A stretch of DNA of 29,318 nucleotides from positions 1-29,318 of the IMG/VR virus record IMGVR_UViG_3300017761_002137. One strand, given 5' to 3'. The position numbers and the translations under genes are program-made. This DNA comes from a virus (Duplodnaviria; Caudoviricetes). The notes below the pieces were generated by a model. It made no database searches, had not been told where the DNA came from, and saw nothing but the letters and a program-made list of their open reading frames with translations. Positions 22,048 through 27,430 of the stretch are shown one piece after another. Position 1 is the first letter of the stretch, and every line of letters begins with the position of its first letter.

Positions 22048-22765
22048 ACAATGGAAGAAATGGATGGCGGTTAGTTGTTCTCACGGAGATCACCTTGACC
22101 CAGAGGCCAGAGACGCTGTGCTTAGATTTAAGGAGAGTTTTAAGCCAAATACTGCCATCCATCTCGGAGACTTCATTGACGCAGCAGCGGCTCGTTCTGG
22201 AGCAATGAATGACCCAAATGCAGCAGATCGTGCAGCATCAGTAGCGGAAGACCTTTCTGCTGGTGTTGATTTCCTACAAGAGCTTCGCCCAAATCATATC
22301 CTATACGGAAACCATGAGGACAGATTGTTCAGGCTTGCCAATTCGCCTAATGCGTTAGCGGCCCATGCTGCAACACTGGTTATCCAAGAGATTGAGAAGA
22401 CTGCAAAGAACCTAAAGGCCAGGACATATCCATATGATATGCAGTCACATCCTATAATTGGAGGCACAAAATTTATCCACGGCTTTATGTATAACGTAGC
22501 CAGTATTAGGGATCACGCAGAAACATTTGGAAATTGCATTATGGGGCATGTGCATCGCACTGGCATAGAACAAGCAAGAACACTCAATGGGGCTACCGGA
22601 TATTCAGTTGGTATGTTGATGCGCTTTGGTGCTGACTATTCCAAAACGAAACGCCAAACGCTTGCCTGGACGCAAGGATTTGGTTACGGATTTTACACAG
22701 ACACACAGATAACAGTAAATATATGCGAACGAAAAAGGGGAAACCCGTGGATGTTGCCGCTATAA
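22031..22765 (+). CDS. Calcineurin-like metallophosphoesterase
   Basis: CSHG, GDFID, GNHE, IHG and GHVHR metal-binding motifs. Confidence 0.85.
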   Translation: MATINKQWKKWMAVSCSHGDHLDPEARDAVLRFKESFKPNTAIHLGDFIDAAAARSGAMNDPNAADRAASVAEDLSAGVDFLQELRPNHILYGNHEDRLFRLANSPNALAAHAATLVIQEIEKTAKNLKARTYPYDMQSHPIIGGTKFIHGFMYNVASIRDHAETFGNCIMGHVHRTGIEQARTLNGATGYSVGMLMRFGADYSKTKRQTLAWTQGFGYGFYTDTQITVNICERKRGNPWMLPL

Positions 22766-22986
22766 ACTCTGCTTGGCAGGGTTTGTTCGACCAAAGCAAA
22801 ACTAATTCTATTGAGGGGCTTAGAAAGGATGGGTGGATTTCCATCTATGAGGCATCTAAGAATATGAATAGATCGCGGCCTGCTGCAAAGGCTGCACTTG
22901 AAAGAGCGGGTGCAGAGTACAAACAATTTGTAATTATTGCTGGAGGCTTTGCGCGGAAGACCGGGTTCTTTAGGCTTAAATGCTGA
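22747..22986 (+). CDS. Hypothetical protein, possible HTH
   Basis: GWISIYEASKNMNRSR HTH-like segment; start uncertain (22723 or GTG 22747). Confidence 0.45.
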   Translation: MDVAAINSAWQGLFDQSKTNSIEGLRKDGWISIYEASKNMNRSRPAAKAALERAGAEYKQFVIIAGGFARKTGFFRLKC

Positions 22987-23065: not shown

Positions 23066-23470
23066 CTATTTTATTACTTCCCAATAGTCAATGGGATAAT
23101 TAATTTCTATTTCTGTTTTTTCTTGATCAAAGGACTTAACTTTTTCTTGTTCGATTTGGAGGCGGATTGTCCATGGGTTGTCTTCAGATAGGAGTCCAGA
23201 GTGTCGCAAGCCATCAAGTAGATTCTTTGTGGAAGCTGCGGCGTTGTCTGGATCAAGACACCGGACTCGGAACAGAGTGAAGCGGACGTCAATGCGTCCA
23301 ACAGCGCGTCCCAAGCCAGCTTTTTTTCCTTGTATTGGACTGCCCAGTGTTGGCGCATAGTTTTGTTTAGGGACGGGGTTCTGTATAGGACTGTGAGTTT
23401 TAGTTGCATTGGCTTGTAAAAATGATTGTGAGGCGTTTGGGAATGCCAGCATTAGTTCTTTTTGGGTCAT
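23066..23470 (-). CDS. RusA-like Holliday junction resolvase, catalytic-core frame
   Basis: R..LDPDN....KNLLDGL...LL.EDN RusA-type acidic motifs; N-terminal ~50 aa is P/Q-rich and lacks the usual first strand and helix. Confidence 0.7.
   Translation of the reverse strand: MTQKELMLAFPNASQSFLQANATKTHSPIQNPVPKQNYAPTLGSPIQGKKAGLGRAVGRIDVRFTLFRVRCLDPDNAAASTKNLLDGLRHSGLLSEDNPWTIRLQIEQEKVKSFDQEKTEIEINYPIDYWEVIK
23107..23409 (-). CDS. Overlapping-frame ORF carrying a RusA-type N-terminal strand and helix
   Basis: MQLKLTVLYRTPSLNKTMRQHWAVQYKEKKLAW matches the PSLN...HW...K..W start of phage RusA-like proteins; nested in the 23066-23470 ORF in another frame. Confidence 0.6.
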   Translation of the reverse strand: MQLKLTVLYRTPSLNKTMRQHWAVQYKEKKLAWDALLDALTSASLCSESGVLIQTTPQLPQRIYLMACDTLDSYLKTTHGQSASKSNKKKLSPLIKKKQK

Positions 23471-23733
23471 AGCGTGTATCCATTTTCCTTGGCCCAGGCT
23501 GGATTGTCATGGCATTTAGTATGGCAAAATCTACAGGTTGATAAGAAGGTGTCTTTATTACACAGATTCTTCCCCCTTTTAGCCATGTGGTGAATGTCTG
23601 TAGCATCGCATCCACAAATCTCGCAATATGGATTCAATGCGAAGTGTTCTTTCCTTGCTTGAGAATACTTAACGAGTTCTTTAGAGTGCCTTGCTGACAC
23701 CTTGTTCATCCTACTTCTTCTTAACAGGGGCAT
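23467..23733 (-). CDS. HNH endonuclease
   Basis: CEICG..ATDIHH...RG......CRFCHTKCH. Confidence 0.8.
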   Translation of the reverse strand: MPLLRRSRMNKVSARHSKELVKYSQARKEHFALNPYCEICGCDATDIHHMAKRGKNLCNKDTFLSTCRFCHTKCHDNPAWAKENGYTL

Positions 23734-23911
23734 AATAGCGTTCCATACTTTTTAGAGTTTCAAGGCATTCGCTATTTTCGATTGGCGAATAAACACACTT
23801 TGGAAATTCTTTTCCTCTCATGTGCATATCACCTAATTTATTCAGCTTGAATGGAGAGACGAATATTCTCATCTCCCCATTCTCAAGACCAATGAATGGA
23901 ATCAAATCCAT
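23711..23911 (-). CDS. Hypothetical protein
   Basis: 66 aa, tightly packed in the minus-strand operon. Confidence 0.55.
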   Translation of the reverse strand: MDLIPFIGLENGEMRIFVSPFKLNKLGDMHMRGKEFPKCVYSPIENSECLETLKSMERYYAPVKKK

Positions 23912-25685: not shown

Positions 25686-27404
25686 ATGTGGATACTACCC
25701 AAAAACCTAACCTCTCACACATTTCCCTCTGCTTTGGCTACGGAGGTATCGACCTCGGACTCCACCGAATTTTCGGAGACAGACTACGACTCGCTGCTGT
25801 TTGCGAGATCGAGGCATTTGCTCTGGAAAATGCTTTGTCGAAAATGGAAGCAGGACTCCTTCCTCCGGCTCCGATCTGGAATGATTTACGGACATTCCCT
25901 TGGGAAGAGTTTCAAGATGTCAGCTTGGTATCGGGAGGTTTTCCCTGCCAGCCATTCTCCGCTGCTGGAAAGCGAGATGGAGATCAAGACCCAAGACACC
26001 TCTTCCCATTCATCATTGATGGAATCAAACGATGCAGACCAGGACTTGTTTTCTTGGAAAATGTCGAAGGAATCCTTTCAAGCAAACTTACTGGAGAAGG
26101 TTGGGCAGACCCAGCCGGAACGCCAGTTTTGCTCCATGTCCTTAGAGAGTTGGAACGGGTGGGTTACAAAGCAACGGCAGGAATATTCAGTGCGTCTGAA
26201 GTCGGCGCTCCCCACCAGCGCAAACGAGTGTTCATCATGGCCTACCTCAAATGCGCGGGATTGGAAGGATTCCGGCCCGACCCAAGGCAATCGAAAGAAT
26301 CCCAACTTGGGGACTGCGGTGGTGAAGGATGCGGCGAACTGGCCGACACCTCAAGCGCAGGACACGCAGTGGACGCCGGAAGCATATGCCGCAGCAAAGG
26401 AGAAGCGTGGCGGAAAGATGTTCTTGAGCCTCAACATTGCGGCGCAACAGCATGGCCCAGCCGCCCAGGTCAACCCCAATACGGATGGGAGCCGCCAAGA
26501 GTTGTGGCCAACACCATCAGCGGATGGGGACAGCAGGCCGGGAGTCAATGCGGATCCGGTGAAGTGGCAGCAGATAGCGGATGCAAAGAAGGCACAGGGG
26601 ATCAACAAACAGTTATTCCTGACGACCAAGGTAGCAATGGAGGAGCAGGAGAAGATGTGGAGAACACCATCTGTAGCGGAAGAGAAGAATCAGAATACCA
26701 GCAAGCAAATCTACCTTCAGAACCAAGTGGGGGCGACTCCGAAATCGTGGGCAACTCCAAGATCGTGCAGTGCAATGGCAGCAACAATAACACAAGAGTC
26801 AGCGAACAAAGAAAACAGATTCCCGAATTTAGAAACTCAAGTTGGGAGACAACAATGGGCAACTCCTCAAGCGAGCGACCATATCGAGGGAGCGAGGACG
26901 GCAATTGGGAGCAACCAGAAATGTTTGGGGCGAGACCTGAAAACATGGGCAACTCCAAGAGTGGGTGGACAGGAGAGTGCGGAAACAAGGATAGCCAGAG
27001 GGAAGGACTTGGGTCTACTTGGTCAGGTTCAGGTGGAGACATGGGCAACACCGAACAGCTTCTGTTTCCAGCCTCCAGAGAACACGGAGCAATGGACGAA
27101 GCGAGCGGAATTCCAGCAGACCGAGAAAGGAGTGAATCTACACAAGCCGATTCAGAGCCAAGTGCTACACGAAAACGAGAAAGTGACAGGGCCAATGCCT
27201 CCGAGTGCAGCGAAATTGAACAGCCAATGGGTTACTCAACTCATGGGACTGAATCTCGGTTGGGTATCTCCGAGTTGTCCGGCCTCAGTAATTCAGAACT
27301 GGCCAAAATTCGTGAGTGGATGGTTAAAACTGACAACCGCACGGACGAACTCCGATTGCTCGGAAACGGAGTTGTCCCCGCAACAGCAACCAGAGCTTTT
27401 CTGA
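25686..27404 (+). CDS. Overlapping-frame MTase partner ('beta'): eight W-x-T-P modules plus motif IX-like segment
   Basis: 572 sense codons nested over the MTase; ATG overlaps the alpha GTG (ATGTG); KLNSQWVTQLMGLNLGW resembles motif IX. Confidence 0.75.
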   Translation: MWILPKNLTSHTFPSALATEVSTSDSTEFSETDYDSLLFARSRHLLWKMLCRKWKQDSFLRLRSGMIYGHSLGKSFKMSAWYREVFPASHSPLLESEMEIKTQDTSSHSSLMESNDADQDLFSWKMSKESFQANLLEKVGQTQPERQFCSMSLESWNGWVTKQRQEYSVRLKSALPTSANECSSWPTSNARDWKDSGPTQGNRKNPNLGTAVVKDAANWPTPQAQDTQWTPEAYAAAKEKRGGKMFLSLNIAAQQHGPAAQVNPNTDGSRQELWPTPSADGDSRPGVNADPVKWQQIADAKKAQGINKQLFLTTKVAMEEQEKMWRTPSVAEEKNQNTSKQIYLQNQVGATPKSWATPRSCSAMAATITQESANKENRFPNLETQVGRQQWATPQASDHIEGARTAIGSNQKCLGRDLKTWATPRVGGQESAETRIARGKDLGLLGQVQVETWATPNSFCFQPPENTEQWTKRAEFQQTEKGVNLHKPIQSQVLHENEKVTGPMPPSAAKLNSQWVTQLMGLNLGWVSPSCPASVIQNWPKFVSGWLKLTTARTNSDCSETELSPQQQPELF

Positions 27405-27430
27405 CACTATTGGAGAAACTAAACGGTTGA
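25688..27430 (+). CDS. C5 cytosine DNA methyltransferase, catalytic ('alpha') frame
   Basis: Motif I SLCFGYGG, II CEIE, IV GFPCQPFS, VI LENV, VIII HQRKRVF, X LRLLGNGVVP; motif IX absent; GTG start. Confidence 0.9.
   Translation: MDTTQKPNLSHISLCFGYGGIDLGLHRIFGDRLRLAAVCEIEAFALENALSKMEAGLLPPAPIWNDLRTFPWEEFQDVSLVSGGFPCQPFSAAGKRDGDQDPRHLFPFIIDGIKRCRPGLVFLENVEGILSSKLTGEGWADPAGTPVLLHVLRELERVGYKATAGIFSASEVGAPHQRKRVFIMAYLKCAGLEGFRPDPRQSKESQLGDCGGEGCGELADTSSAGHAVDAGSICRSKGEAWRKDVLEPQHCGATAWPSRPGQPQYGWEPPRVVANTISGWGQQAGSQCGSGEVAADSGCKEGTGDQQTVIPDDQGSNGGAGEDVENTICSGREESEYQQANLPSEPSGGDSEIVGNSKIVQCNGSNNNTRVSEQRKQIPEFRNSSWETTMGNSSSERPYRGSEDGNWEQPEMFGARPENMGNSKSGWTGECGNKDSQREGLGSTWSGSGGDMGNTEQLLFPASREHGAMDEASGIPADRERSESTQADSEPSATRKRESDRANASECSEIEQPMGYSTHGTESRLGISELSGLSNSELAKIREWMVKTDNRTDELRLLGNGVVPATATRAFLTLLEKLNG

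Follow-up and report, generated by a model that had tools for sequence, protein, structure and literature searches.

The window analysed here, the whole stretch of a virus record found in freshwater metagenomes (29.3 kb; 43% complete by CheckV), carries two overlapping reading frames for parts of a RusA-like resolvase on its minus strand, each opening with its own ATG, as a preliminary description of this DNA had noted. ORF A (23470–23066; 134 aa) encodes the C-terminal, catalytic half of RusA, and ORF B (23409–23107; 100 aa), nested within it in the +1 frame relative to A, encodes the N-terminal half. Upstream of A is an HNH-family ORF (23733–23467, minus strand; PHROG HNH, E = 2.7e-6) whose stop codon overlaps the ATG of A in the sequence ATGA, as that description had stated.

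The A protein has a short two-helix N-terminus carrying an FPNAS motif, then a P/Q-rich coil and the catalytic RusA half. Its residues 1–21 (23470–23408, minus strand) lie 5' of the B start and are selected in the A frame; the coil is the +1 shadow of ORF B; and residues 59–127 (23296–23090, minus strand) form the catalytic core. In B, residues 1–42 (23409–23284, minus strand) hold a strand, the motif YRTPSLN, an HW pair and a helix, and correspond to approximately residues 1–50 of RusA. They are followed by a predicted second helix at residues 59–78 (23235–23176, minus strand), overprinted on the catalytic helix of A, and by a Lys/Arg/Ser-rich tail at residues 79–100 (23175–23110, minus strand) with eight Lys or Arg and no Asp or Glu.

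There is no same-strand gene directly downstream of A and B in the window. A terminator-like hairpin (23054–23033) stands 3' of the A stop codon and a G/C-rich inverted repeat at about 23016–22988; the hairpins 3' of A (approximately 23054–22986) face a convergent ORF at 22723–22986. The idea that B is kept open just for coupling to a downstream gene was rejected, because downstream ATGs mostly overlap the A stop (−4, −1, −8) and rarely the B stop. A promoter scan gave hits at chance level only, and the one RNA run (X24) yielded a contig of a 94% relative, which cannot show expression.

An indel at the frame switch was looked for in contigs (Logan) of runs X1 and X3, either of which may be the source sample of the virus record. 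Over positions 23258–23800, which include both starts and the frame switch, the contigs had 0 differences and 0 gaps, and no continuous frame was seen in the contigs or in relatives. The same runs contain a second, more abundant variant of positions 23093–23261 (depth 71–77 versus 12–26) with 17 base differences and, close to both ORF ends, two 1-base gaps that lie 4 bases from each other and compensate; this is likely to be a co-occurring related phage.

A and B resemble complementary parts of RusA

The A protein matched the PHROG RusA families (phrog_1682, E = 4.6e-6; phrog_34, E = 6.9e-4) and had no match in NCBIfam or in Pfam, where PF05866 was not reached; Pfam RusA matches two of 145 A-family members, both weakly. 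No significant family match was obtained for B, nor any RusA match in PHROG or the PDB, and PDB sequence searches returned nothing significant. By profile alignment, A residues 42–123 aligned to residues 42–118 of six single-chain RusA-like proteins (HHalign 97%). B residues 1–50 aligned weakly to residues 2–48 of single-chain RusAs, with the HW pair matched (HHalign 16%; E = 0.0016, a pairwise value from a six-sequence profile). An Atlas search with B, useful as a lead only, placed it nearest to clusters of 80–85 aa proteins (scores 0.88–0.89), of whose members 22% and 43% carry Pfam RusA; these clusters are possibly stand-alone front-half genes in other lineages.

An AlphaFold2 model of A, built from 145 sequences, had a mean pLDDT of 87, with 94–98 in the core. 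It consists of helices at 3–9 and 15–21, a coil at 22–59, and a core at 60–124 with three strands and one helix, the catalytic one; the full RusA fold comprises two helices and a sheet of four strands. In a structural comparison, model residues 57–127 superposed on residues 52–118 of E. coli RusA (1q8r) at rank 1 of 48,161 chains (Z 5.0, rmsd 2.8, 66 residues aligned), a Z score tied with those of unrelated folds (tautomerases, Z 4.9). Foldseek with the same model found nothing significant. The catalytic signature of RusA, D-x-D-N...K...D, is present in A; R68, D73, D75, K82, D86, D97 and Q108 are invariant in 59 A sequences, and N76 is kept in at least 90%. Judged from the spacing of the motifs, which includes three residues inserted ahead of the Lys, D73, D75, N76, K82 and D97 would correspond to E. 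coli RusA D70, D72, N73, K76 and D91, which are given as catalytic in the available part of PMC1636454. The same text locates RusA residues 13–16, together with the loop after them, at the crossover of the DNA, and the equivalent of this segment is carried by B. The catalytic core in A and the missing strand and helix in B are where the preliminary description had put them, with the B alignment being the weaker of the two, and the RusA-like parts of A and B are complementary. The whole fold was not found on one polypeptide; in 59 of 62 loci one half is read in a different frame from the other.

An improbable alternative is that both proteins are made and A works without B, through its FPNAS helices or as a homo-oligomer, with B serving as a DNA-binding regulator or accessory protein. 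AlphaFold2 does fold A confidently by itself, A holds all of the catalytic residues, and B brings an additional helix and a basic tail of its own. However, many homologues lack the N-terminal helices of A or have something else in their place, so these helices cannot in general stand in for the first strand and helix of RusA; at two loci (L077 and L080) A starts only approximately 4 nt before B. B also keeps precisely the elements that A is missing, and in RusA the S13–R16 turn contacts DNA beside the active site, according to that part of PMC1636454.

A further alternative concerns the function of an assembled pair. The chains might form some other branched-DNA nuclease or a non-catalytic binder rather than a Holliday-junction resolvase, as the scarcity of Pfam RusA matches in the family, the insertion between DxDN and Lys, and the novel parts of B would allow. 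We regard this as very improbable, since all catalytic positions are invariant or nearly so and since no other RusA-type gene was found in near-complete genomes: a single phrog_1682 match occurs in each of five phage records, of which three are at least 99% complete, and Pfam RusA was absent from the four relatives among them.

Selection switches frames along the shared DNA

Fourteen viral loci with 79–100% protein identity were compared. The ATG and frame of B are kept in all 14, and the A ATG is present in 13, with the remaining locus ending at a contig edge. Variant alleles from the 12 distinct full-length close loci were sorted by region; approximately 28% synonymous changes would be expected by chance. 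5' of the B start, the A frame had 21 synonymous and 10 non-synonymous alleles, versus 3 synonymous, 25 non-synonymous and 3 stops in the B frame. Across B residues 1–42 the pattern was reversed, with 29 synonymous and 12 non-synonymous alleles in the B frame and 6 and 35, respectively, in the A frame. Across B residues 43–100 it was the A frame again that was protected (27 synonymous and 15 non-synonymous, versus 10 synonymous, 31 non-synonymous and 1 stop in the B frame). Selection thus alternates from A to B and back to A along the shared DNA, an order that would require translation from both starts.

The +1 arrangement is conserved in divergent loci

With A as the phmmer query, 914 representatives from 50% clustering were matched at E up to 1e-3, and 166 of these at 1e-10. 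Among the best 150 of the 914, which were inspected, the common P/Q-rich segment is PSLN...HW read one base off; an HW shadow occurred in 130 of 142 A-family proteins, an indicative figure with no background rate. For the locus set, 122 starting locus ids were reduced by at least eight without a profile match and then by nine more: one without the motif, two with short upstream sequence and six scoring under 100, five of which are entries of one single-chain RusA outside the family (L062/L170). Sixty-two loci remained after collapse at 80% nucleotide identity, including one repeat-junction chimera (L056).

PSLN...HW lay in the +1 frame in 59 of these 62 divergent loci, and in none did it lie in the A frame or the third frame (0/62 each); the other three carry variant motifs in +1, judged by eye. 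The suggestion that the PSLN frame might lack conservation can thus be set aside. The 59 loci have a median nucleotide identity of 63% and a GC content of 39–65%; they are related by descent, and their counts do not represent independent events. The motif spacing is 34 codons in 56 of the 59. In the clade of the window it is 38 codons because of an imperfect 12-nt tandem duplication (23311–23288, minus strand), located where the end of the B helix overlaps the first strand of A. A 38-codon spacing also occurs in L163 and L127.

The A frame was open across the B-selected region in 59/59 loci versus 15.9 expected, a result partly biased by the choice of loci through A, but a search that started from the B motif agrees with it. 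This search gave 15 DNA stretches, from 14 contigs; in 12 of them the catalytic motif lay in the A frame, in three it was missed by the regular expression or cut off, it was never in the B frame (0/15), and A was open for 29–120 codons upstream in all 15. B alone as query matched two database proteins, and a B profile matched 51, among which (24 of the 51 sequences were read) no single-chain member was found except the defective P0020.

Two matches from a genome collection are labelled Verrucomicrobiota. Within this phylum, 10 of 401 genomes matched; eight of the matches are RusA-like, all eight have a B-type motif in +1 by eye, and they include a more divergent DxDN subfamily. The loci L193–L199, from Verrucomicrobiota-phylum genomes, belong to a more divergent subfamily with the same split, and in five of them the A N-terminus has Cys pairs in place of FPNAS, possibly a zinc ribbon. 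Searches of cultured phage records (tblastn with A, P0036 and P0172) gave no match, so there is no cultured model phage at hand; P0019 as query found no viral loci.

The FPNAS two-helix module of A (23470–23408) is confidently predicted; some members of the family keep it and others lack it, and its Asn/His-Ala codons supply the B ATG in several loci. A DNA pattern for FPNAS found 25 stretches, 14 of them the known close loci; the other 11 comprised one true homologue (L044) and 10 chance matches. In L200 the module stands ahead of an apparently decayed core.

Three database proteins depart from the usual layout: P0003, from a single contig, has an internal duplication; P0022, also from a single contig, has a frameshift in the A N-terminus; and P0020 joins B to the end of A. 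These are probably assembly errors or broken copies. P0020 might be taken as a sign that the split is itself an assembly indel or a recent pseudogene of a single-chain rusA, but it is known from a single contig and its join deletes the DxDN motif. With no indel in the contigs of two runs and the phase kept in 14/14 close and 59/62 divergent loci, such an origin has next to no probability; judged by comparison of the loci, the conserved +1 phase excludes it. The dual-frame gene is real, old and widespread.

The C-terminal half of B

The preliminary description had B lose its protein-like character after the N-terminal part. This is contradicted by the B frame being stop-free across the A core in 59/59 loci. 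From D-8 to D+28, B was open in all 59 versus 4.6 expected from synonymous resampling, with eight open in a third-frame control; as an empirical +1 background, the +1 frames of neighbouring genes were open in 26% of equal windows. Up to D+22, 0 B-frame stops were seen versus 124.7 expected, and up to D+45 there were 11 versus 190, the constraint ending at D+47. Four-fold sites of the active-site helix of A are skewed towards B residues: GGA is used in 41 of 49 Gly codons (background 27%), GCT in 38 of 44 Ala codons (background 18%) and GGC in 49 of 54 Gly codons (background 34%).

AlphaFold2 predicted the second helix at B residues 59–78 (model pLDDT 69). The tail is Ser/Lys/Arg-rich across the family, and the median net charge of B is +13 versus −1 for the A core. 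These patterns of codon use and open frame indicate selection on the C-terminal half of B, which is not junk; a clamp or a DNA-binding surface is the likely contribution of the second helix and basic tail. They are not essential in every lineage: the tail is shortened in L012 by a stop at codon 74, and B is shortened in two of seven more divergent genome loci (L193 and L196), with a stop approximately 8–11 codons after the first Asp.

Start codons and the possibility of a frameshift

A B ATG lies exactly 11 codons 5' of PSLN in 30 of 59 loci and 7–20 codons before it in 48/59 versus a background of 20%; any common start is found in this interval in 57/59 versus 42%. The B start is absent in two of the 59 and is TTG/GTG or displaced in some loci, and an SD-like motif precedes it in only 3/38. 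For A, an upstream ATG is present in 48/59 loci and GTG or TTG in the other 11.

The alternative to two starts is that a programmed −1 frameshift or a transcriptional slip fuses the B N-terminus to the A core, the full ORFs being by-products. The geometry suits a −1 shift, the motif spacing is almost constant, and the window has an in-frame A_AAA_AAG heptamer in the B frame (23327–23321, minus strand) with a foldable stretch downstream (−16.2 kcal/mol, with no control at the window locus). The heptamer is lost in close relatives, however, and was discarded as a site of programmed slippage: a slippery heptamer between HW and the core is found in 7/59 divergent loci for any X_XXY_YYZ and in 5/59 for A/T triplets, and A/T runs of seven in 4/59. 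Nor was a conserved downstream RNA structure found by a simple MFE test of nested folds (mean z −0.16 and 0.10, with 2/59 loci below −2).

The lengths of the two parts also fit poorly with a fusion. From the W of HW to the core D there are 27 codons (31 in the clade of the window), versus 43–46 in five HW-type single-chain RusAs, and the B helix pattern runs 18 residues past HW, onto the codons of the first strand of A. With this overlap and this short spacing, a fused chain would be without the linker and part of the helix, and it would fall 12–19 residues short of single-chain RusAs. Selection on B, moreover, continues past the heptamer, and A has an N-terminus that is itself selected. Stops are avoided, too, in those parts of both frames that would go unread after a frameshift. 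On these comparisons we consider production of one chain by frameshifting unlikely, and the fusion quite improbable as an account of the locus.

A methyltransferase in two frames

A C5-methyltransferase in the same genome is also split over two frames, as had been reported. Frame 1 (25688–27430, plus strand) matches PF00145 positions 3–168 and has a short C-terminal methyltransferase motif; frame 2 (25686–27404, plus strand) matches phrog_1008 and has repeated W-x-T-P motifs. The frames start 2 nt apart, and comparison of one with the other found no similarity. We take the motif IX/X labels to apply to them, and the layout resembles M.EcoHK31I. Both matches occur also in two other genomes (G001 and G002), and in a further one (G005) a weak phrog_1008 match falls within a PF00145 match of nearly full length.

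In these two genes, the preliminary description had seen a hint of a general dual-frame strategy for splitting enzymes. A general or genome-wide strategy is not supported: it rests on two genes, the methyltransferase layout was already known, and a 100% complete genome (G004) has the split RusA and neither methyltransferase match.

Discussion

Both frames are selected, both have start codons and their RusA-like parts are complementary. The earlier reading of the locus as a RusA split between two chains is well supported by this comparative evidence: the two conserved frames would yield separately translated chains, B and A, which probably assemble into one Holliday-junction resolvase. A would be translated by coupling to the HNH stop codon, and B from its internal start without a Shine-Dalgarno sequence. 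The strand and long helix of B would complete the three-stranded sheet of A. Within such a unit, A would give the metal-binding D73, D75 and D97 together with K82, and B the PSLN turn and HW loop, the equivalents of the RusA parts in contact with the crossover. A pair of AB units would then form the usual RusA dimer and may cleave junctions during phage recombination or replication. The gene likely originated when a single-chain rusA suffered a frameshift, an upstream start codon in the frame so created came to its rescue, and overprinting then fixed the layout.

On balance, we favour the broader view that a lineage of uncultured phages, to which up to 914 50%-identity clusters match through A, has an obligate two-frame, two-chain resolvase with overprinted modules and a hidden chain. 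If so, an obligate two-chain Holliday-junction resolvase would span approximately 300 shared bases in two frames, and each chain would have gained a selected module over the coding DNA of the other, with the B helix and tail lying over the A active site. Gene callers would miss the hidden chain, and the family would for that reason be annotated as truncated or hypothetical; the split-frame layout would likewise explain the failure of the Pfam model to reach hundreds of phage proteins that have RusA catalytic motifs. Nested-frame split enzymes would extend from C5-methyltransferases to a nuclease, and to a wide family rather than a single gene. The loci expose a protein family (B) mostly left out by annotation and offer a natural series for the open question of how long out-of-frame overlaps arise and become fixed.

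E. coli RusA (1Q8R, 2H8C and 2H8E; PF05866; PHROG 34 and 1682) is the closest known system. The model of A aligns with residues ~52–118 of its fold, at the modest Z score given above, and A has equivalents of its catalytic residues; the counterparts of B, at a weak score, are the strand, PS.N turn and helix at the N-terminus of single-chain phage RusAs. Both kinds are phage-borne. The E. coli enzyme is, however, one 120-residue chain that forms a homodimer, whereas here each half has a frame to itself. The present gene also has no helix-to-strand linker, A gains an N-terminus not present in RusA, B likewise gains a helix and basic tail, and three residues are inserted before the catalytic Lys. 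The product would work in the manner of RusA but lacks the single-chain feature, so we do not file it as an ordinary RusA member. Among the results listed by a search of open-licence PMC and bioRxiv, no paper described RusA as split or dual-frame; for the gene layout there are precedents in M.EcoHK31I and Rz/Rz1.

In M.EcoHK31I, the beta chain lies entirely in another frame of alpha (PMC2836561 and PMC3404938, as far as the available parts describe it). There, too, a DNA enzyme that is usually a single chain exists as two polypeptides, the smaller wholly inside an alternative frame, and in both systems this small gene has its own start and carries family elements missing from the host chain. 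M.EcoHK31I is a C5-methyltransferase, a different enzyme class from RusA. Both of its chains are needed for activity, according to the same parts, as would be expected of A and B. Its nested chain is described there as carrying one motif (IX), whereas in the dual-frame RusA all of the N-terminal 40% of the fold is on the nested chain, and the catalytic core is a region of constraint in both frames.

The lambda gene Rz1 lies wholly within Rz, in the +1 frame, and their products form one complex (available part of PMC5295617). As described there, sensitive regions of one gene lie over silent ones of the other, just as A residues 21–58 run under B residues 1–40. The Rz and Rz1 products are, by that account, membrane-fusion proteins in two membranes rather than halves of one globular enzyme, and in the RusA gene, unlike Rz/Rz1, a second zone, where the A catalytic helix meets the B second helix, appears to be constrained in both frames.
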